64,000 bases of DNA from positions 7,936,001 to 8,000,000 of the forward strand of contig OU015568.1 of NCBI GenBank assembly GCA_907165135.1, in the 5' to 3' direction. This stretch comes from Oikopleura dioica (Eukaryota; Animalia; Chordata). Of this stretch, positions 33,510 through 64,000 are shown piece by piece. A program made the translations under genes and the position numbers. Positions within the stretch are counted from its first letter, which is position 1; each line of letters opens with the position of its first letter. Under the pieces are notes generated by a model. It ran no database searches. It had not been told where the DNA came from and worked only from the letters and a program-made list of their open reading frames with translations.

Positions 33510-35623
33510 AAGTTTTGGTCAGTTGCTTCTGATTTCAGCAAGCCTCGCGAGATGGGCCCGCAACTGACCCTAAATCGATTCCCCCGGGGATCAGCACCTC
33601 ATTCTTTTTATACCAATCAATTTTTGCAATATTGTGATTTATTTTAATTTAATTATCGAAGCAAAATTTTCAGAATAGGGAAACCGAAATTTTTAACAAC
33701 GATTGATCATCCAATAACTGTTTCCGCATAAGTTATGCGGCATAACCTTATCATTATACTATTTATAATCATAAAAATTATAAATAAATTATGTTGCAAT
33801 TACCGCCAACCGGAAAGTAATAAAAAGATGAGTGACAGAAAATAATCAGGTTAGCTTATACAACTAAAAAAATCTGACGGTAGGCAAGGTGATCAAAAAA
33901 AAAAAAATTTGAGGATTCAGTCCTGGTGGTGGTCATTACAGAAGAGTTTCCTCGAAATTTGTAATCTGATTGTTTTTCAGACGTTTTTAAAGGTTTAGGA
34001 CGGATCAATATTTTCTAGGGCAGTATTCGGTAGGAGATCGTAAATCCCCCTGAGATTCTGGAGGGAAGCAACAGGAGATATTCTTGGTAAAACACCACTG
34101 GAGCCAAAAAATCTCGATCAAAATTTAGGGTGTCGAAATGAGGCAAAGTCAAGTGTTTGAAAACTCATAAAATCATTTTCCCGTTTGTCATCGTGAACAG
34201 TTTCAGACCCAGTTCAATGTTTGGAGAGCTACTCTGACGGAAACAAGGTCAAGAACTTTTTCCTCGGAATTACGGAAAACAGGTCAGCCGTGAGTGTACG
34301 GAGAAATCGGGGCCAGTTTACGCAAGCTGCTCGTGTTCAAGGTCAGCATTCGGGGAAAGCGGTAAGCCCGGAAAATTGGAAAGTCTTGTAAAAATAGACT
34401 TTCTGGGAATAAAGGCCAGGAAAAAGAGTGTTGCATTTGAATGCAGTTAGAAATGCACCTGATTGCTGCTGATTGGTATCGCAGCAACGGTAATCTTCAG
34501 CTTCCGAATTTGAATTTCCTGTAGTCTCCTGCCGAGAAAGACCATCTACTCAGCTGTTGGAAAATAAATTTCTTTGAATCGTAGATATTCAGAGAAATTC
34601 TAGCGCTTTCTCCGTTCCAGCTGGAATTTATCGGTTTCAAAGAACTGCGGCGAGTTCAGAGGTTGATCCGATAATTCGCCAAATTCCGGAAAGATTTGAG
34701 TTTTGACCGAAGCAAATGATTTTATGGTTCTAAAGGAGATTTAGATTTGCGATTTGAGTTACAAATTTACGATCTTGGAACGTATTTGAGTTGAATTTGC
34801 AAGCTCTGTGGGAGCTACCTCGACCGGTTCGGGCAGCGATTTTCAAGAGTTCTTGGAAGCTGTCGACTGGAGTTTTGTTCAAAGCCGGAATGATTGAGAC
34901 GAAGTTTGGAAGATGAAAACTTGAACTGGATAGATAACTAATGATATCAAAAGTCGCCTAGAACACAGTCTCCCTCCAGGAACCTTGACCCACTTTCTCG
35001 GCTGGCCTTGAAAACACAAACGACCAGGCAGGAAATCTCGTGCACTAGATTCTTTCAATGTTGGCAACGGAAATAAAATGCGCAAAAAAAGAATAACCGT
35101 TTATAATATCGGTGAAGGGATTGTCGGATCACTGATTGGGATTCCGCTGAGCTGGAATTTGGAGCCTTTGGAGATTTGCGGTTCACACCTCGAGACTCGT
35201 GTGGGGCGGATTATTGATTTCAGGCATCTAAGAGAGCTCAAGAAAGGAATTCCAAAGCGGTATTTTATGAATTGTCGAACGAGTTGAAAGCAATGGTAAA
35301 TACTGTAGACAGCAGGCCGATTTTCGTGTAAGGATACGGATTGTCAAGGCAATATTTCACGAATTTCCTCCAATAAAACTGTAACTTCTCCATCTGCAAA
35401 ATATCTTTAAAAATCTGACCCAATTTCTTAGCTACCTTCTATCTGTTCATATTTGAACAGGAACAGCTTATCTATTGTACGTATCGTTATCGTATCTACA
35501 TCTGCTTCGGGGGTACCAAGAATCTACTGTTGATCTTTATCTTCTCAGAAATTCGGCGATGTCACGCTGAGCCCGAGCGCGGGGAAACGGCTGGCAAGAG
35601 CGCCGCGGCGCAATTTCGGAACC

Positions 35624-35630
35624 TATAAAA
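35624..35630 (+). promoter_or_regulatory. TATA box of PIM-like kinase copy 1
   Basis: TATAAAA 114 nt upstream of the ATG, after a GC-rich stretch. Conserved in copy 2 at 56090-56096 (minus strand). Confidence 0.6.
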
Positions 35631-35743
35631 TCGGCCTTGGAAAAAGAGGCAACCATCAAATCTCAAACAAAACAGTTTCAAACAACAAGAACTCGAGCAA
35701 AAGCACACAGAGCAAGAAAACAGTCAGAGATTCAAAAGGAAAA

Positions 35744-36592
35744 ATGTCCCGAAACAGCGAATCTGGCTACTCCTCCGATGAAAACATCGTCTCTCCTCAA
35801 GAACAGATCGCCAAAGACCAGCGAAGATTCGCCAAGACTTACGAAGTCGAGGAAGAAATGATGAAATCTGCCAACGGGATCATCTACACAGGCTTCCATC
35901 ACAAGACCGAGCAGCGAGTCGTCATCAAGCAGATTCCACGAAACAAGATCTCCGAGTTCAAGCAAGTTCAAAACCGACCCGTCCCGAGCGAAATCTACTA
36001 CCATTTCAAGGCAGCCCAAGCTTCCAACTTCGTCGTGGCTCCTCTTGATTGGTACGAACGGCGATCTTCCTTCGTCCTTGTCATGGAGCGCCTCGATGGC
36101 TACGTCGACCTCTTCGAATTCGCCAACAAGAACGGGGCAATCAACGAGGAAGCGGTCCGCATCATTGCCGGCCAGTTGATCACCTGCTGCATGGAACTCG
36201 CCCGCGCCGGCATCTGCCACCGCGACATCAAAGACGAGAACATCCTTATCAACCCAGAGACCCTCGAGATCCGCCTGATCGACTTCGGATGTGCTAGCCG
36301 CGACGGAGCCTGCTACACAACTGCACGTGGAACTCCAAACTACTGGCCCATCGAATTCTTCCAGAACCGTCTTCTCAGCGCGGAGCCACTCACTGTCTGG
36401 AGCATCGGAGCTGTCATCTACATTCTTCTTACCGGAAACTGGCAGACCGATGGACGAGGCCAGATGCAGCGAAACTTTCTCGCCGAGCGCAGCCTTTCTC
36501 CCTTCACAGTCGCCCTCATTGACCGGATGTTCTGCCCTGACCCAATGTCTCGAATCACGATGGAAGAAATCATCGCTTCTGGATGGTGCTAG
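35744..36592 (+). CDS. Intronless PIM-family Ser/Thr kinase, copy 1 (282 aa)
   Basis: VVIKQIPRNKISEF, LDWYERRSSFVLVMER, HRDIKDENILI, LIDFG, GTPNYWPIE and VWSIG match the PIM kinase pattern. Confidence 0.92.
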   Translation: MSRNSESGYSSDENIVSPQEQIAKDQRRFAKTYEVEEEMMKSANGIIYTGFHHKTEQRVVIKQIPRNKISEFKQVQNRPVPSEIYYHFKAAQASNFVVAPLDWYERRSSFVLVMERLDGYVDLFEFANKNGAINEEAVRIIAGQLITCCMELARAGICHRDIKDENILINPETLEIRLIDFGCASRDGACYTTARGTPNYWPIEFFQNRLLSAEPLTVWSIGAVIYILLTGNWQTDGRGQMQRNFLAERSLSPFTVALIDRMFCPDPMSRITMEEIIASGWC

Positions 36593-49342: not shown

Positions 49343-52338
<2,996 letters not shown>

Positions 52339-52536
52339 ACGATTCACAACACATTCCTTGCAAAAAAAATAGGAAAATTAATTAATCTTGAATCACTGAA
52401 CCTTCATTTATCTCACTGCCACCTTATGAAATCGCACCTGACGACCAAACCCCTTATCTGACTCACATGTAGAGAGCAAGGAACAAAAAATAAAGTTCAA
52501 TCTGAAAGCTAAAAGATCTTTTTATTGCAGAATGAA

Positions 52537-54004
52537 ATGTCACTAACCGCCGAGGAGCTTGATGCGCTTCTAACGTTCACAGATCGATGCCAAGATGGCA
52601 AGGACTCCGAAAGAAGTATACAGGATTTGAGCCTGTCTTTGTACACTGAAAAACTCAACGACCACAGACTCGTTTCCGGGCTAGCCTGTTTGCTTGAATG
52701 CGACCTCCTCAGCAGGGTTGCGCGCGTTGGCGTCATTGGCGCGCTTGGTTGCTCCAAAGAAACGCCATTCAAAGAAATTTATCATAGGATCAATCCAGTT
52801 TTAAGTAATCCCTTTGAGCAGGTACGTAGTCAATATTCGACTCGTGGTAAATTCTTGTAGAAATTGCTGCGTAATATTCTTTCCGGAAATAAAGATGTTC
52901 TTCAAAAAAGCCCAAAAGCATTGCTGTCAACAGAGCTGCCAGATGTTCCATTGCCACTGATTGAGAAAGCGCTTGGAGATGACTCGCGATCTGCATTGCA
53001 GCGAGCAGCAATTTCTTCCATAATTCCAGATCCAGAACGCTTCAACGTTTCCAATCAAAGCGGTGCACTTCTGTCCTCATTCTCTTCCTTGATTTGAATT
53101 TAGATGAACAACTCCGCAGAACTACGATGCAAATGATCCTTTCCGAGCCAAGCTTTGGGCAGCGATTCTTGCGCCCTTCACAGATCTCGATTCCTCCTCC
53201 TGTTTTTGACTATATTGAAAATGAGGTACAGTCGCTTAAAGATATCTTTTACCAATAAGTCCAAGCTGGAATGGATGCTTCCAAACGAACACTACCACCA
53301 CACGTTGGAGTGGGATGATGAAATGTGTGTAAATAGCAAGGAAACGAGCGAATTCGAAAGATTACTGAAATTTTCGACAGAAAGAAAGCTCGACGCCACG
53401 GAAGAAGCATATTTAAAAGAAGCTATAAAGGTTTTTACTTGAGTAGTGACAGTTCTTACGTTTTCCGTAGAAAGACCACCGGCTGATGGAGTCGCTTGGA
53501 TTCACAGCCGACTTGCTGCCTCAACTGGTCGAGTACAACCCCATGCTGACAGTTGAGTTCCTCATGACCGTCCTGGAGCACGAAGACAAGGACGAGATCA
53601 AAAAGTATCTTCATCAAATGACGCAAATACCTGTAACGTTGCAGAGTCTCGAGGTGGTCAACCGCCTCGTCTCGCAAGTTGAACTGCCTTCAGACTTCAT
53701 CCCTTATTATATTTCGCGCTGCACGAAGACGTGCGAGGACCAAAAGGTACTCAGCTAACTGTAATGGCTATGAACGGAACGTAGGATCGCTCGCAGCAAG
53801 GCCGTCTTGTGCGTTTGGTTTGCGTCTTCTTGCGGGCGCTCATCAACAACTCCCTGTACGACATGAAGGACAGCCTGAGCGAGGTGCAAGGATTCTGTGT
53901 CGAGTTCGCAAGGATACGCGAGGCCGCCGCGCTCTTCAGGTTAGATCCGCACACATGTTTCGCTTCTATTTATTAGGGCCCTTAAGACTGCTAAGGAAAG
54001 TTGA
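52537..54004 (+). CDS. CNOT11: CCR4-NOT subunit CNOT11 (spliced)
   Basis: [62 protein letters not shown]. Confidence 0.95.
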
Positions 54005-54399
54005 CTCGGAAAGAAGCGCCACCTCCAAAAGTTGATGCAAAATCCACTGCTGATAAAAATTCATAAAACTAAATAAAAATAATAAAATCACTCACTCTCA
54101 CGCGTTGAACATCGCGTTCTATCTTACTCAGCAAGAAAAAAGAGTCAAGTACAGGGACTTGTGCAGTTTCTTTTTCTCATTTTCACCAAGCAAAGGCAGC
54201 AAATCCGCCAAATCCGAGAACATTAGTCCCACTTGAAATGGCTGCTTTGAACCTTCTTTTTTCATGAACTCGAGCTTCACCTACGGCTTTTAGTATAATA
54301 TTTCAACAGTTGCTTTCTTCCAAAGGAATTTCCAACAGTTGAGAGAACGGTGCAGATGTGGAGCTTGAGGTTTCTCTTTTTAACTAGCGATTTTACGCA

Positions 54400-55127: not shown

Positions 55128-55976
55128 TTAGCACCATCCAGATGCCATGATTTCTTCCATCGTGATTCGAGACATAGGATCAGGGCAGAAGATGCGGTCA
55201 ATCAGAGCGACTGTGAAGGGAGAAAGGCTGCGTTCGGCGAGGAAGTTTCGCTGCATCTGGCCACGACCATCAGTCTCCCAGTTTCCGGTAAGAAGAATGT
55301 AGATGACAGCTCCGATGCTCCAGACAGTGAGTGGCTCGGCGCTGAGAAGTCGGTTCTGGAAGAATTCGATGGGCCAGTAGTTGGGAGTTCCACGGGCAGT
55401 TGTGTAGCAGGCTCCGTCGCGGCTAGCACATCCGAAGTCGATCAGTCGGATCTCAAGGGTCTCGGGGTTGATGAGGATGTTCTCGTCTTTGATGTCGCGG
55501 TGGCAGATGCCGGCGCGGGCGAGTTCCATGCAGCAGGTGATCAACTGGCCGGCAATGATGCGAACCGCTTCCTCATTGATTGCCCCGTTCTTGTTGGCGA
55601 ATTCGAAGAGGTCGACGTAGCCATCGAGGCGCTCCATGACAAGGACGAAAGAAGATCGCCGCTCGTACCAGTCAAGAGGAGCGACGACGAAGTTGGATGC
55701 TTGGGCTGCCTTGAAATGGTAGTAGATCTCGCTCGGGACGGGTCGGTTTTGAACTTGTTTGAACTCGGAGATCTTGTTTCGTGGAATCTGCTTGATGACG
55801 ACTCGCTGCTCGGTCTTGTGGTGAAAGCCTGTGTAGATGACGCCGTTGGCAGATTTCATCATTTCTTCCTCGACCTCGTACGTCTTGGCGAATCTTCGCT
55901 GGTCTTTGGAGATTTGTTCTTGAGGAGAGACGATGTTCTCATCGGAGGAGTAGCCGGACTCGCTGTTTCGAGACAT
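55128..55976 (-). CDS. Intronless PIM-family kinase, copy 2 (282 aa)
   Basis: Intact ORF with 5 amino-acid differences from copy 1. Confidence 0.92.
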   Translation of the reverse strand: MSRNSESGYSSDENIVSPQEQISKDQRRFAKTYEVEEEMMKSANGVIYTGFHHKTEQRVVIKQIPRNKISEFKQVQNRPVPSEIYYHFKAAQASNFVVAPLDWYERRSSFVLVMERLDGYVDLFEFANKNGAINEEAVRIIAGQLITCCMELARAGICHRDIKDENILINPETLEIRLIDFGCASRDGACYTTARGTPNYWPIEFFQNRLLSAEPLTVWSIGAVIYILLTGNWETDGRGQMQRNFLAERSLSPFTVALIDRIFCPDPMSRITMEEIMASGWC

Positions 55977-57423
55977 TTTTCTTTTTGAATCTCTGACTGT
56001 TTTCTAGCTCTCAGTGCTTTTGCTCGAGTTCTTGTTGTTTGAAACTGTATTGTTTATGATTTGATGGTTGCCTCTCCTTCCAAGAGCGATTTTATAGGTT
56101 CCGAAATTGCGCCGCGGCGCTCTTGCCAGCCGTTTCCCGCGCTTGGGCTCAGCGTGACATCGTCGAATTTCTGAGAAGATAAAGATCAACAGTAGATTCT
56201 TCGTACCCCCGAAGCAGATGTAGCTTCGATAACGATACGTACAATAGATAAGCTGTTCCTGTTCAAATATGAACAGATAGAAGGTAGCTAAGAAATTGGG
56301 TCAGATTTTGAAAGATATTTTGGAGATGGAGAAGTTACATTTTTATTGGAGGAAATTCGTGAAGTATTGCCTTGAAAATCCGTATCCTTACACGAAAATC
56401 GGCCTGTTGTCTACAGTCACTTACCATTGCTTTCAACTCCTTCGACGGTTCATAAAAAACCGCTTTGGAATTATTTTCTTGAGCTCTCTTAGATGCCTGA
56501 AATCAATAATCCGCCCCACACGAGTCTCGAGGTGTAAACCGCAAATCTCCAAAGGCTCGAAATTCCCGCTCAGCGGAATCCCAGTCACTGATCCGACAAT
56601 CCCTTCACCGATATTATAAACGGTTATTCTTTTTTTGCGCGCTTTATTTCCGTTGTCTGCCTCGAAAGAATCTAGTGCACGAGATTTCCTGCCTGGTCGT
56701 TTGTGTTTTCAAGGCCAGCCGAGAAAGTGGGTCAAGGTTCCTGGAGGGAGACTGTGTTCTAGGCGACTTTTGATATCATTAGTTATCTATCCAGTTCACG
56801 TTTTCATCTTCCAAACTTCGCCTCAATCATTCCGGCTTCGAACAAAACTTCTGTCGACAGCTTCCAAGAACTCTTGAAAATTGCTGCCCAAACCGGTTGG
56901 GGCAGCTCCCACAGAGCTTGCAAATTCAACTCAAATACGTTCCAAGATCGTAAATTTGTAACTCAAATCGCGAATCTAAATCTCCTTCAGAACCATAAAA
57001 TCATTCGCTTCGGTCAAAACTCAAATCTTTCCGGAATTTGGCGAATTATCGGATCAACCTCTGAACTCGCCGCATTTCTTTGAAACCGATAAAATCCAGC
57101 TGGAACAGAGAAAGCGCTAGAATTTCTCTGAATATCTACGATTCAAAGAAATGTATCTTTCAACAACTGATTCGATGGTTTCTCTCGGCAGGAGACCACA
57201 GGAAATTCAAATTCGGAAGCTGAAGATTACTGGTGCTGCGATATCAATCAGCAGCATTCAGGTGCATTTCTAACTGCATTCAAATGCAACACTCTTTTTC
57301 CTGGCCCTAGTTCCCAGAAAGTCTATTTTTACAAGACTTTCCAATTTTCCGGGCTTAGCGCTTTCCCCGAAAGCTGACCTTGAACACGAGCAGCTTGCGT
57401 AAACTGGCCCCGATTTCTCCGTA

Positions 57424-57584
57424 CAGTGGGTTGCGCAGGTAGTTGCCCCCTAAAGTGCGGGTGGAGGGGCAACCAATCCTGCAATCACTTTGAGCGAGTC
57501 TAGAAAGAAACAATAGAAAAAGCGCGGGCAAAGGGGCAACCAAAGCTGCAATCGCAAAGGGGCAACCAACTGCGCAACCCACTG
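57424..57584. mobile_element. Tc1/mariner-type MITE, 161 bp
   Basis: TIR CAGTGGGTTGCGCAG(GTA/TTG)GTTGCCCC, TA duplication, and an empty site (single TA) in the paralogous copy at 34297-34298. Confidence 0.95.
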
Positions 57585-58029
57585 TACACTCACGGCTGAC
57601 CTGTTTTCCGTAATTCCGAGGAAAAAGTTCTTGACCTTGTTTCCGTCAGAGTAGCTCTCCAAACATCGAACTGGGTCTGAAACTGTTCACGATGACAAAC
57701 GGGAAAATGATTTTATGAGATTTCAAACACTTGACTTTGCCTCATTTCGACACCCTAAATTTTGATCGAGATTTTTTGGCTCCAGTGGTGTTTTACCAAG
57801 AATATCTCCTGTTGCTTGCCTCCAGAATCTCAGGGGGATTTACGATCTCCTACCGAATACTACCCTAGAAAATATTGATCCGTCCAAAATTTTCCAAAAT
57901 CTCTGAAAAACAATCAGATAACAAATTTCCAGGAAACTCTTCAGTAATGACCACCATCAGGACACAACCTGCATACATGTACTCATATTATTTCAAATCA
58001 CCTTGCCTGCTTAAAATTTACGCATTGAT

Positions 58030-58799
58030 GGTTGTAGGCGGTCACGAGGAGACTTTTCTCCCAGTTCGTATTTTCGCGAACGAGGAGACTTTTCTCCCAG
58101 TTCGCCGAAATTCGAACGAGGAGACTTTTTTCTCCCACTGACCACGTTCTGAGAATTTTTGAACGAGGAGACTTTTTGCAAGTATTTTCTCTAGATGAAT
58201 TTCACTGCGTAGATTCTACGCCGTCGAAGATGAATGTTCGACTGATTGTCTACAAAAGATAATTGGAGAAAAAACTTATTCTTCAGAGGATAAGGAAGAA
58301 AATAGGTTGGACAGGAGAAAATTATAAAATCTAATTGCCCCCAACCACGGGGCTTCGCCCCTTAGGTCCTAAAATGCCGAGGTCTAGTCTAGGGTTACTT
58401 AGGGTTACCTTCAGTAACCCTAACTAACCCTAGCCTATCCCCCTCGGGTAAGTTTGTTCTGTCATTTCGCCCAGTGCCCCCTAACCCTAACCTCAAATAT
58501 AAGAAAATGCTCCCAACTGCAAATTATTCCTCAAAAGCCGGGATTTGGCGAGCCCAAAGAGTGCCTATGCGCTTCGCGCCTGTCTTTTAGAAAACCTCGT
58601 AGAAAATGTGTCATATTACCAATCAACATAACTACGGAAAATGTTTTCAAAAAAGTCTCCTCGTAACCGCGATTCAGTTGAGAAATGAACGGGGAGAAAA
58701 AAAGTCTCCTCGTTCGCATTCTGACGAACTAGGAGAAAAGTCTCCTTGTTCGCGAAAATACGAACTGGGAGAAAAGTCTCCTCGTGACCGCATATCACC
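58030..58799. mobile_element. Non-autonomous foldback DNA transposon, 770 bp, 8-bp TSD
   Basis: TSD gcattgat at 58022-58029 and 58800-58807; TIRs of >100 bp built from repeated cgaggagacttttctccc units. Confidence 0.9.
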
Positions 58800-59262: not shown

Positions 59263-60227
59263 CTACATTGACGGCACATTATCTTTTATCCAGGAAAGTG
59301 CATGCGTGATAGATGCGTAAATTGTTGGTGCTCCTTCTTCTGCGCACCCTCTGCTTCGATTGACGACTCCAACAAGCGTTGCTTTTCCATCAACATCGCA
59401 GATCAGGGGACCTCCGGAGTCTCCCTTAATTAACATCAACTATTGTTCATAAAATATTAACTCACGTGACAAGCGCCAGTATTAGCATCAGTGAGTCCAT
59501 TGCCGTCAAAGTCAGGTAAGCCGGCGCAAATGTCATCTTCATGAAGCGTTTCATAAACTGAGTTGTTTCGGCAATATTCTTGGTCCAGCAGATATATGCC
59601 CGCCGACTTTAGTGTCTTGGATGGCTTGTTTTTTGAGGTTTTCCCAAAACCAGCTATCCAACATTCAGTTCCGTGGGCGGGTACTTCCGATGGTAGACAA
59701 GGAGCAGATACGATTTTATCCACGTCAGCAGATTCAATGGAATCGGTAAACTTGATCAAGCACCAGTCGTTGTTTTCTCCAGTATGATTTGGGTGAGCAA
59801 TGAAATCCGTCGATGTGAGTTTGAATTCAGAGACTATGAAATATAATTAAAGCTGTCAAGAATATTATACTATTATCCGCGTTATCTTACCGTCAACTTT
59901 GCCCGTCAAATACGTCGACTTTGAATCGCCGAAGAAAGCATCAACCTCGCTGAACTCGTCTCTGCAGCAATGAGCTGCTGTAATGACTGTATTCTTTTCC
60001 AGTACACTTCCTCCGCACAATGTCGAATACGAACCTCCTTTGACCCTTTTGAAACCAAGGCTAACAAACCAGGGCCAGTCCGAAGACTTCGCATTTGCTC
60101 CCCCAATGATTTTACCCGTTGAAAATCCCGCTTGAGCATTACAAGATTCCAAAGGTGGAATTTGATGTGACGTCGCAACGAAGGGCCCGAGTGTTGTGAC
60201 AGGCGTGTCACAGTTTATTTCAGGAAT
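59263..60227 (-). CDS. S1 family serine protease, catalytic exons; upstream exon(s) not found
   Basis: K|IIGG activation site, LCGGSVL..TVITAAHCC, NNDWCLIK and GACH|GDSGGPL, so the His/Asp/Ser triad is intact. First visible exon starts at an AG acceptor and has no Met. Confidence 0.92.
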
Positions 60228-60999
60228 CTAGGACAAAGGGATTAGCAGCCCGCTAGAAATAGAACGCGGCAGGAGAGCCTAGTAACCAATGGCAGGGACT
60301 CCCAGGACGCAGCAAAAGGTGACAAAGGCGCCCGAGAGCACCTGGTTTCGAGCGGGTGCACCGGAATCACGCAGGTTCACTCTAAAGGTTCTTAGCCTGC
60401 AGCTAAAACCTAAATCGAGAAATTTAAAATAGAGGCTTTTTCTCAGCAGAAGCATTACCAATAAGACTCCTAGCTGAATCAAAAGACTCTAGGTAGACCA
60501 TCAATCGATGCTACCGCTTATTTCACCAGTCCCAGGACTATAAACCTCTTCAGCCTCACGCAGTGCGTCTAAGGCTCAAGCTTCCTCCATTAGCGGCCAC
60601 ACCGGTGCGCCAAGCCGAGCCAATCAGCTCTCAGGCTACTCTGAAGGAATCAAAAAAAAAAAGAGAAAGAAAAAGAGAATCTTTCCTTAAAGAAGTTCGG
60701 AATTCTTCTTCCCCAGTTCAGCGGGACTCACTATTTACTCCTCTTCTTCAGACATGATCGAAGAAGCCTTCGTTAAGGCAGCGGAGGAATTCGGCCCCAA
60801 ATGGGGAGTGGCTTTGGACTCAGATCCTACACGCCCAATTGAAAACTCTCAAAGAAGAATCCAAACCCTCGACGAGGATATTTCCAGGAAAGGATCTCAA
60901 AAGATAAACCTCAGAATCCCTCGGCTAGCCCAGAAGGAAGAATCTTTTCCCCATTCTTAGAATTTTTTTTGATCCTCTCAAAGAAACACCCTTCTGCTC

Positions 61000-63962
61000 A
61001 TGAGCCAGATAAACTGGAAAAGACTCTCCCGTACGGCAATGGCGACTCCGAAAATAGCACCTAGGCTCTTAAGACTCTACGTCCCTGCGGATGCGAACGA
61101 GCCTCTATCCAATCACAGATTGGTTTTCGATCGCCAAACTCCTTCAAAGGCGAGATTCAACTTCTCAGAACTCTCCTCTTGGGCCCAAATCATATTTACG
61201 GCACCATCAGGGAAAGAGTCACTCTGGATAGCCCACCAAAGCAACGAACCCGCCTTCATCCTCTCCATTATAATGGAAGAAATTGCAGAAGCGGAGAATG
61301 ACCGCCCAGACTCTTGGCTACTGGAATCCAAGCCATACCCGTTCAAGCCATCGGAGAGTCCCACAAAGTTGTTGAAGCAAGAATCGTTGGGAACAAACGA
61401 CGCTCCTAGCGTCAAACTGGACGACCACGAAACCATCTTCAGCCTTTTAGAAGCGCTAAAGATAGGAAGCACTAAAGGCCCGCTCAGAATCGTGGCCCGA
61501 AATTCAGACTCCCACCCGGCTCCGAACCTTCAAAAATCAGAAGAAAAGGGCAGACTCTTTCCGTTCAGTATCCTGGAAGAACTAAAGAACTGGGAAAAAA
61601 TCAACGGCCAAGACTGGTTTTGCGAATGGGAAGGCTCCGAGAATCAAGACATTCTAGATGAAGGTTTCTGGCATCACGTCTGCCTCCGAGTGATCAGGGA
61701 AAGTAAAGTCAGGACTCAAGCGAACTACGAAAGACCAAGCTTCACAGACGAAAACTGGCTCCGAAGACTCATAAAAAAGGGCCTCGAAACGATCTTCGAC
61801 TCGATGCCAAGACCAGACGCTTTCATGAAGCCGCAGGAGCTCCTGGACTCACTCAAAATGCTGAAATCGATTCACAGTGACTGGCACGAAATTTGCCACC
61901 AGAGAAACGCCTGGCTGGAGCTCAAAGAAGACAGAGACACCCAGTGGGCAAGGAAGGGACCAACAAATGCAAATGCATGGATCATCGATGTGATCGGTGA
62001 ATATGCCTCAGTAGACTCTGCGACGCCGAACCCGACGCCGCTGACTAAGATTCTTACGCCATTGCTGCTTCATTTGGTGCACAAGCAACTCGCCCAAGAC
62101 TCCGTCATCGGACAAGACGGAAGCTGCAAAGAAATGCCCACACAGTGGCACACGGACTGGAAAGAACTGAAAGACTCCAATTCGCTGAAAAAGTGGCTAG
62201 AATTAGCAGCAAAGAAGGTTAATCCAATTAACACGACGGTCAGAATCAAAGAAGTCGGCAAAGGAAACTCCAACTGGATTCTCTGGATCCCCTACAAAGT
62301 GGTCCCCCAATTATGGGTCATTAATTACGGCGAGGACTCTGAGCATCTCAGAGAAAGATCCCTACTCTCAGTGGCAGCCCACCCAGCACTGGTACCACTA
62401 GAATCTGAAGCGCTTGAGAAGCTGGCCTCGGAGCCGTGGACGACTCAAAACGTCAAGAAATGCATCGCGGCGTTCCAGAAACCAACCAGAAATTATTACG
62501 CCTCCGGAGCCTGCATAGTCGGAATCAACCGACCCTTCCGAACTCAGAAAATCATCCTCGAAATCATCGCCAAAGTCGTCAAAGACTCCAAAGCCCACTC
62601 CCATTTACGATCAGTCGAACACAATTTGGGAATCTTAACAACCGGCTGGAATTGGGCAAACGGGAAAAGATTCAGCCCGGACAAAACCCTCGACAGCTTC
62701 ATCAGCACTTGGATGCGAAAAAGAGAAGAAGTCACAGGAGTCACGAGACTCAGATTCCTCCATTCACGCCCCGAGAAGCGCGAAAGATCTTGCGAATGGC
62801 CAATGTGCGGAGAAGCCGAGGCAGATTCAACTTGGTGCAAAACACACCAAGGATTCCGAGAACTGAAAGAAGCCCGACAGCAAAACTGCTCACCAAATTG
62901 CCAAGAAAGAAACGGCTTTGGCCTAATCAAGCCCACCCAAGAACACACCAGAATGGCTATCGACAGCGAAGAATGGCAGCAAACCTTTCTGAAGCTCTCA
63001 GAAACATTCAAGACAACAACGCTGAAAGACGCCGACGAAGAACTCATCGGGAGAATCCAAAACACAGCGGTGGAAGGTTTTGACTCGATTCTTGAGGCCT
63101 GAAATCTACGGCAGTCCTTTTCCAGGGAGAAAACGACACAACGTCGAACATTGCCAAAGGACTCAAAAAACTCGGCGGAGTCATAGAAAGACCAAGATTC
63201 GAAAGACCAGAAGCAGCAGGAATTGTCATCTATCACGCGGGTCTGGAAAGATGCGGAGGCAAATTCGATGCTTTCGTAGTTGGAAACACCACGGCCCCGA
63301 AGAATCTACACCTCCAAGAACTCGCTAAATCCATCGCAAGCGAATCTGGAGACAGCTGGTCGGAAGTGGCGAGACTCATCAAGGAACAGACATTCCAAAA
63401 GGACACTGTTCTGGTCCTCCCAGCCCAAGAAGATGCCAAAGCCCTAGAAAGAGCCCTCAGCACTTGGTCCGCCCCGTACGTCAAATTCGTCACCCAAGGC
63501 CTGATGAAGGATTTTCACCAAAAGCTTCGAGGAGACAAAAACCCAAGATTTTCGGGCCTTTGGGAAGTTTTTCAAATCGCTTGCGATTGCGGCTATGAAT
63601 CCAGATTCACCCCATGCTGGGCACACCCTAGGGTGGCGGAAATGATGGCCAGATGCTGCAACGGCCTCGACTCTAGAAATCGAGCTGTCTCAAAAATAGA
63701 CAAGCTCAGACTCAGGGCTAACAGAACAACCTGGGAAAACGTCACAGACAAGTCCCACGATTTGTCCCAGAATGCTCCATTCACGACTCACTTCAGAGAC
63801 ATCCTCTTAGACGGAATCAAAGCGGCGGAGAATCTAAACATGGACGAGGGAGCAACTGCCGGAGCCGAGAATCTCTTCCCAAACACTTGGACTCAGAACC
63901 TCCAGACCATCGAGGAAAGATTCGCACGAATGAATATGACCAAAACCCGAGAGAATAACTAG
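61000..63962 (+). mobile_element. Unclassified element ORF: 699 codons plus 288 codons joined by a single -1 shift at 63096 (~987 aa); element probably begins ~60240 and continues past the window
   Basis: Intronless, A/C-rich sense strand, Trp/Cys-rich protein with a C-x4-C-x9-C-x2-H motif, lying antisense upstream of the protease acceptor. No RT, integrase or transposase motif recognised. Confidence 0.55.
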
Positions 63963-64000
63963 GAGAAATAGAAATCTGAATCCGCTTCTAGACTCTATTA

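Follow-up and report, generated by a model that had tools for sequence, protein, structure and literature searches.

A 64,000-nucleotide (nt) stretch of the Oikopleura dioica genome (contig OU015568.1, positions 7,936,001 to 8,000,000; hereafter the window, with positions counted from its first letter) ends within a mobile element that begins at position 60224 and in which the five-letter word GANTC is present at 2.9 times the expected frequency. The excess is real, strong and wider than first reported in an earlier note on this DNA, where only GACTC had been remarked upon, and it is strong enough to shape the encoded protein. With a probability that we put at roughly 0.42, these sites might constitute a dispersed recognition code whose reader is a protein encoded by the element family or by an autonomous partner. 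Beyond a few plant cases, little is known of how mobile elements mark themselves to be copied or to evade silencing, and here a five-letter word is held at about three times its expected density across coding sequence and across protein lineages only 26% identical. As GANTC is kept in such distant lineages and a sister lineage is without it, there is a natural contrast which makes the question testable. The findings also point to a family of elements in a model chordate that is unclassified and probably active to this day. The element and the pieces of its open reading frame (ORF) are as follows, P0001 and P0005 being two of its related proteins, every named one of which is an O. dioica protein:

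60224..64000, plus strand: 5' and middle part of the mobile element, continuing beyond the window; 70 GANTC sites (24 GAATC, 30 GACTC, 12 GATTC, 4 GAGTC)
60754..60960, plus strand: start of the ORF, 68 codons with the ATG at 60754; 20 of 37 residues match the beginning of P0005 exactly (E 4e-11)
60973..63102, plus strand: ORF piece A, 709 amino acids (aa), no Pfam family; 26% identical to P0005 (609 columns) and 77% to P0001
63096..63962, plus strand: ORF piece B, 288 aa, predicted RNase H-like fold (VIA Z 6.5, root-mean-square deviation 4.3, 121 residues aligned to the UvrC RNase H domain)

The 30 GACTC against 4 GAGTC which the earlier note had counted on the plus strand between 60297 and 63995 were found again on recounting, corresponding to 8.1 GACTC per kb as compared to 1.0 per kb in the remaining window, and the excess does not vanish in dinucleotide shuffles (6.9 expected, 0 of 500 reaching 30). 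Two further words that had been overlooked, GAATC (24 versus 8.5, 0 of 500 shuffles) and GATTC (12 versus 5.7, 5 of 500), are raised as well, and GAGTC is at expectation (4 versus 3.4, 212 of 500). The true word is thus wider than GACTC, namely GANTC and in practice GA[A/C/T]TC, with a total of 70 versus 24.6 in 60224-64000 (0 of 500). When all 256 gapped words are ranked, GA.TC comes first (70 versus 24.4, log10 P -13.4), followed by CC.AG with a log10 P of -3.6. The excess persists under dinucleotide, trinucleotide and codon controls. In 3.75-kb tiles the ratio of observed to expected counts (O/E) lies between 0.57 and 1.25 in the 16 tiles before 60001 and reaches 2.78 in the tile of the element.

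In agreement with the earlier note, amino-acid usage alone does not account for the sites, and neither does codon usage, since GA.TC exceeds synonymous-codon shuffles both in ORF A (39 versus 24.1, 0 of 1000) and in ORF B (16 versus 11.3, 15 of 1000); for GACTC alone the codon-preserving comparison holds in ORF A (18 versus 11.4, 2 of 1000) but not in ORF B (6 versus 4.2, 191 of 1000). GACTC is indeed found in the 5' non-coding part and in every codon phase (10/5/3 in ORF A), and 24 of the 30 copies follow an A or G. Of all 70 GANTC sites, the ORF contains 59, with nine more in non-coding DNA on its 5' side and two downstream of it; the mean gap is 54.6 nt and the spacing more regular than random (coefficient of variation 0.77 versus 0.97, p 0.016). 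Tandem repeats were rejected as the source of the sites, as no tandem array was found over them, and so was the AP-1-like word TGACTCA, given that TGACTC is present only once. As minor observations, the runner-up CC.AG occurs 38 times against 20.1 in 60224-64000, which is borderline over 256 tests, and GA.GC 33 times against 20.3.

The strand specificity claimed for GACTC stands with respect to the raw counts, but the skew of the excess is significant only under an order-1 model (p 0.02 for the scarcity of GAGTC, that is, for unequal enrichment of the four middle bases) and not under an order-2 model (p 0.42). It is partly a by-product of the sense strand's avoidance of GT (O/E 0.53), alongside which TA is scarce (0.45) and TC frequent (1.5). 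Since equality of the middle bases is rejected under order-1 only, the counts do not separate a palindromic site in DNA from a GA[ACT]TC restricted to one strand.

Three full-length relatives are available, P0004 (1004 aa), P0005 (1061 aa) and P0007 (1069 aa), of which the latter two count as one observation because they are 95% identical. In these, the imprint of GANTC was scored indirectly, from the protein alone, assuming uniform codon usage and comparing all 256 gapped words. GA.TC ranks first of 256 in ORF A (z 4.4, a value attained by any word in 7 of 400 shuffles) and in P0005 and P0007 (z 6.3; 0 of 400). It ranks only 132nd in P0004, where no other gapped word stands out either (top z 3.4, 106 of 400 shuffles), and 232nd and 43rd in the two host proteins scored. 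Among dipeptides, Asp-Ser shows the largest over-representation in ORF A (13 versus 2.7), P0001 (8 versus 1.8), P0005 (13 versus 4.0) and also P0007, but is not raised in P0004 (2 versus 2.4). Only 2 of 14 [DE]S pairs are at a shared position in ORF A and P0005. For the DNA level, four DNA runs, drawn from two studies, supplied contigs matching 59500-64000, and 24 of 70 entries for loose ends and 40 of 537 entries for substitutions were examined, to which all statements on either refer; eight internal loose ends of diverged copies, together 215 nt, hold five GANTC by eye against about 1.2 expected. Judged from these sequences, GANTC is a family trait, since a relative with 26% identity bears the same imprint, for the most part at other positions. 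P0004, intact and without the imprint, offers a natural control lineage.

Counts of the 12 words that are one step away from GANTC bear on whether the sites are made or kept. Their total is 186 versus 202.9, the lowest single ratio being 0.57. In simulations with uniform base composition, no coding constraint and one type of hot spot, a 3-4-fold slower loss of the word resulted in an O/E of 2.5-3.1 with neighbours at 0.83-0.94, as compared to the observed 2.87 with neighbours at 0.75 and 0.84, whereas a 10- or 30-fold C-to-T hot spot at GAN[C]C resulted in an O/E of 1.9-2.2 with source words at 0.25-0.53. As an origin from a hot spot would empty a neighbour word and the neighbours are barely depleted, the data fit sites that are kept rather than made.

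If the sites do form a recognition code, a protein that copies or protects the element, encoded within the family or by a partner, would read them whenever the element is expressed or copied. Each site would then be under weak selection, the 2.9-fold excess corresponding to a 3-4-fold slower loss, and the density would be held while individual positions turn over, at the cost of additional Asp-Ser and Glu-Ser pairs in the protein. Since P0004 and most host genes do not have the word, the reader would more plausibly be borne by the element than by the host. Speaking for such a code are the presence of the excess in coding as well as non-coding parts, a site at the very 5' end and the even spacing. 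The earlier proposal of a selected, dense and repeated signal accordingly survives as the best reading insofar as it concerns recognition; the RNA methylation part of it does not, as set out below.

Several observations weigh against a code. No reader was found, the ORF having no recognisable DNA- or RNA-binding family in Pfam/NCBIfam, and the intact ORF of P0004 without the word implies that the family can do without GANTC. In P0001 the word also ranks first of 256, but with a marginal z of 4.2 (21 of 400 shuffles reach it), and the [DE]S pairs of ORF A are kept there in 7 of 10 cases, which equals the background of 0.69. For the retention among element copies that the earlier note had suggested looking for, direct evidence is weak, as none of the 28 listed substitutions hits a fixed base of the motif against 2.1 expected (P 0.12); one of them alters a GANTC middle base and one creates a new site. 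Nor is the word entirely confined to the element, for one of five host ORFs (WDR35-like) has a mild GA.TC excess (18 versus 11.7, 9 of 1000 synonymous shuffles), and in the host MCM/CNOT11 genes (49786-54100, plus strand) GACTC occurs 16 times versus 5.5 (Poisson P 2e-4 before scanning correction).

These two host loci are also what an explanation by a host factor can draw on. It assumes that a germline or embryonic DNA-binding factor of the host reads the sites and that the element mimics a host licence for transcription or for escape from silencing, in keeping with the internal regulatory sequences reported to drive the Tor elements of O. dioica (PMC4402516; this and the other papers cited are drawn on in part only). 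We consider this unlikely, since host DNA of the window is, taken together, at or below expectation (GAATC 75 versus 105.7), the MCM/CNOT11 excess is limited to GACTC without a rise of GAATC or GATTC, and P0004 does not have the word.

Somewhat less likely still is that the element has accumulated the sites in order to be marked by an N6-adenine DNA methyltransferase that targets them, for instance the Dam-like domain of DIRS elements. GANTC is a known bacterial site of N6-methyladenine (6mA) (PMC9895073), it reads as a palindrome, and the order-2 result allows the four middle bases to be equally enriched. In addition, DIRS1-like elements of O. dioica were found by a screen that required reverse transcriptase (RT), tyrosine recombinase (YR) and methyltransferase (MT) domains (PMC3266345). 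However, no methylase domain was found in the part of the element within the window, GAGTC is not enriched under order-1, the Dam domains of DIRS elements have no established specificity and gave no 6mA in heterologous tests, and Metazoa are described as being without abundant 6mA (10.64898/2026.05.21.726589, as far as its available text goes).

An equally improbable alternative does without any function and assumes that GANTC mutates less, or arises more often, in the replication route of the element and has accumulated to an equilibrium. Slower loss by hypomutability would yield the same counts as selection, the positions turn over, [DE]S retention is at background, and the sense strand has strong dinucleotide biases. 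Against it speak the hot-spot simulation, which for the one process modelled gave too small an excess and too strongly emptied source words, the persistence of the excess under all three composition controls, and the even spacing of the sites. Furthermore, we know of no process that protects a gapped palindrome without a protein.

That the RNA of the element carries dense DRACH sites for N6-methyladenosine (m6A) deposition by METTL3/14, as the earlier note had it, can be dismissed as very improbable: although RGACTC makes up 24 of the 30 GACTC and both GGACT (10 versus 4.1) and AGACT (17 versus 6.4) are raised, the reading fails because DRACH itself is not enriched, be it over the whole element (104 versus 101.0, 174 of 500 dinucleotide shuffles reaching 104), under synonymous shuffles of ORF A (59 versus 59.4) or in a second count at ORF level (28 versus 25.5). 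Moreover, those DRACH words whose last base is A or C fall short of expectation (56 versus 70.1), 40 of the 70 sites (GAATC, GATTC, GAGTC) have no AC core and thus cannot be DRACH, and the base after RGACT is a C in 24 cases and a different one in three. A literature search pairing Oikopleura with METTL3 found no paper, and neither METTL3 nor DRACH is mentioned in the available part of 10.1101/2025.08.15.670264, which together with PMC5240408 (likewise in part) provided host background.

The working system that the proposed code would most resemble is VANDAL/VANC, in which an element protein is guided by how densely a short motif specific to its lineage occurs (PMC5735166). By analogy, both have a short and dense word that is found in one orientation, is specific to a lineage of transposable elements and changes between lineages. 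However, VANC motifs are 8-9 nt long, non-coding and built by tandem repeats (PMC5735166), whereas the Oikopleura element has a 5-nt word with a loose middle that lies predominantly within the ORF, forms no tandem array and bends the protein; and the reader of the present element is a putative one.

A second point of comparison is provided by the DIRS1-like elements, which occur in O. dioica with an MT domain (PMC3266345) and replicate via single-stranded cDNA (PMC7192593), no activity or target having been demonstrated for the Dam-like domains in the available text of 10.64898/2026.05.21.726589. Such YR elements and the present one have in common the host and a length below about 6 kb; their ends with repeats, internal complementary blocks and RNase H domain may have counterparts in the putative terminal repeat, inverted block and RNase H-like fold seen here. 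In contrast to them, the part of our element within the window has no detected RT, YR or MT domain, a single long ORF where they have three that overlap, and no visible inverted terminal repeat (the 3' end lies outside the window), and motif saturation is not described in the DIRS literature consulted. The same palindrome is used by CcrM and M.HinfI, which are bacterial, whereas no methylase was found in the element and GAGTC is not raised on its sense strand.

Bacterial DNA uptake sequences likewise spread a short word through coding DNA, where they distort dipeptide use and show biased retention, but these are genome-wide 9-12-mers of bacteria, as opposed to a 5-mer in one lineage of animal mobile elements. 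Long terminal repeats (LTRs) usually start with TG, whereas the repeat of the present element begins with GA, and no gag, pol, integrase or env family was matched by the eight proteins searched from the part within the window and its relatives. In both respects the part within the window differs from the Tor LTR retrotransposons, with which it has in common the host, polymorphic hemizygous insertions and, probably, terminal repeats (PMC4402516). Elements of the Tor (Ty3/gypsy) kind encode gag, pol including integrase and frequently env, and duplicate 4-5 nt of their target. Neither GANTC saturation in a eukaryotic element nor the family itself was found described in the literature searched, which did not comprise supplements and repeat databases; the family may therefore sit in a repeat library, and one paper on an O. 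dioica assembly left 44% of the predicted repeats without a class (PMC8008620).

That the earlier note was right in speaking of an element is supported by empty alleles and by ends shared among contigs, from which the following features of its left end and insertion site derive:

60224..60228, plus strand: GAATC site forming the first five bases of the element (sequence; loose ends at 60222-60224 and 60236 in runs X1, X3, X4 and X5)
60224..60489, plus strand: likely terminal repeat with GAATC at its start and GACTC at its end (contig stacking)
60512..60525, plus strand: 14-nt block kept between subfamilies, read by eye from contigs, with a putative function
59457..60223, minus strand: host trypsin-like protease gene, one exon of which is split by the element after 60223 (PF00089, E 6.9e-12 and 8.3e-14)

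Other flanks join the element at 60222-60224 among the loose ends listed, and a 5577-nt contig of a diverged copy terminates at the same start, 60224. Many contigs pile up on 60224-60489, some of them entering with about 150 other letters and some exiting after the GACTC that ends at 60489; this stacking, with common sequence to either side, suggests that 60224-60489 is likely a terminal repeat with its second, 3' copy beyond the window, past the end of which the contigs extend by 665 (run X1) to 1378 letters (run X5). An inverted 13/14 copy of the 14-nt block was seen by eye in the letters after 60489 of other contigs, and the pair may possibly serve in priming or in pairing akin to that of internal complementary regions (ICRs). 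Nine nt of the left flank (60215-60223) match the inverted block following the terminal repeat in other contigs by eye, which may be due to chance as other flanks do not match.

The uninterrupted protease allele is present in DNA runs X1, X4 and X5 and in RNA reads of X9, which belong to a diverged lineage. The insertion is therefore polymorphic and likely recent, and the element family is likely active. An artefact of assembly or of Hi-C with its HinfI sites was rejected, given that contigs of the four runs cover the element and that P0005 shows the imprint; three of the four runs cover about 3.2 kb of the element with 0-16 differences, the best of which may be the window's own sample. A search for RNA runs containing the element listed none, and four RNA runs of the diverged lineage match the host exon only, at below 90% identity, or nothing. 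Related DNA was not found in viral and metagenome contig collections, and an Rfam scan yielded four sub-threshold matches with none in the gathering range. The predicted fold of the 5' region is somewhat more stable than those of shuffled sequences (z -2.15).

The element encodes one broken frame, about 1,070 codons in length. Its start is followed, near 60958-60972, by two in-frame stops inside some 45 pyrimidine-rich nt (within 60930-60985) that have no counterpart in P0005 and could be a short non-canonical intron. The frame break between ORF A and ORF B is likely an assembly error, because the contigs of all four runs differ from the window there. A Cys/His-rich stretch (62790-62960) in ORF A is partly common to P0001 and is not found in P0004 and P0005. 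None of the eight proteins, from the part within the window and its relatives, has a Pfam/NCBIfam family at curated cut-offs. Protein searches returned one further match for ORF A and five in a representative library, a profile finding only P0005; for ORF B there was no relative at near lengths, ESM Atlas gave no usable match and sequence searches of the PDB were blank.

The C-terminal piece of the ORF, ORF B, weakly resembles an RNase H fold in prediction: in a model with a mean predicted local distance difference test score (pLDDT) of 47.5, the best VIA rows are of that fold (UvrC Z 6.5 and 6.3, Prp8 5.0, integrase 4.8), Foldseek places EndoV and Argonaute on top (E 0.016 at best), and the catalytic acids of RNase H are not apparent by eye. 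The model of full-length P0005 was too poor to use (pLDDT 40.9). By eye, we take the middle of ORF A to look like an RT without YxDD, but when hhalign compared it with a profile of 29 bacterial RTs, the alignment spanned 104 columns in that register, at the B' motif, with a score of 18.0 that was reached by 8 of 40 shuffles. With middling fold scores and an RT alignment within the range of shuffles the element stays unclassified, and a dead Pol-like protein is a lead only.

A more far-reaching scenario, which we regard as speculative and improbable, would see a new class of animal retroelements that combines such a catalytically dead Pol-like protein with a whole-length GANTC code rewriting that protein, where an element-borne reader or a DIRS-type adenine methylase would separate its own lineage from the host and from sister lineages. 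If true, this would provide the first sequence target for the Dam-like domains of retrotransposons and a real 6mA mark in a chordate.

Further features reside upstream in the window. A structure resembling a miniature inverted-repeat transposable element (MITE) at 58030-58799 has inverted ends of 102 nt that are 91% complementary and composed of 36-nt sub-repeats, with telomere-like TAGGGTT units forming a hairpin at its centre, and a short element at 57421-57587 has 29-nt inverted ends and internal GGGGCAACC repeats. Finally, an intronless-looking ORF for a Ser/Thr kinase is present in two near-identical copies about 19 kb apart, at 35534-36592 on the plus and 55128-56003 on the minus strand.

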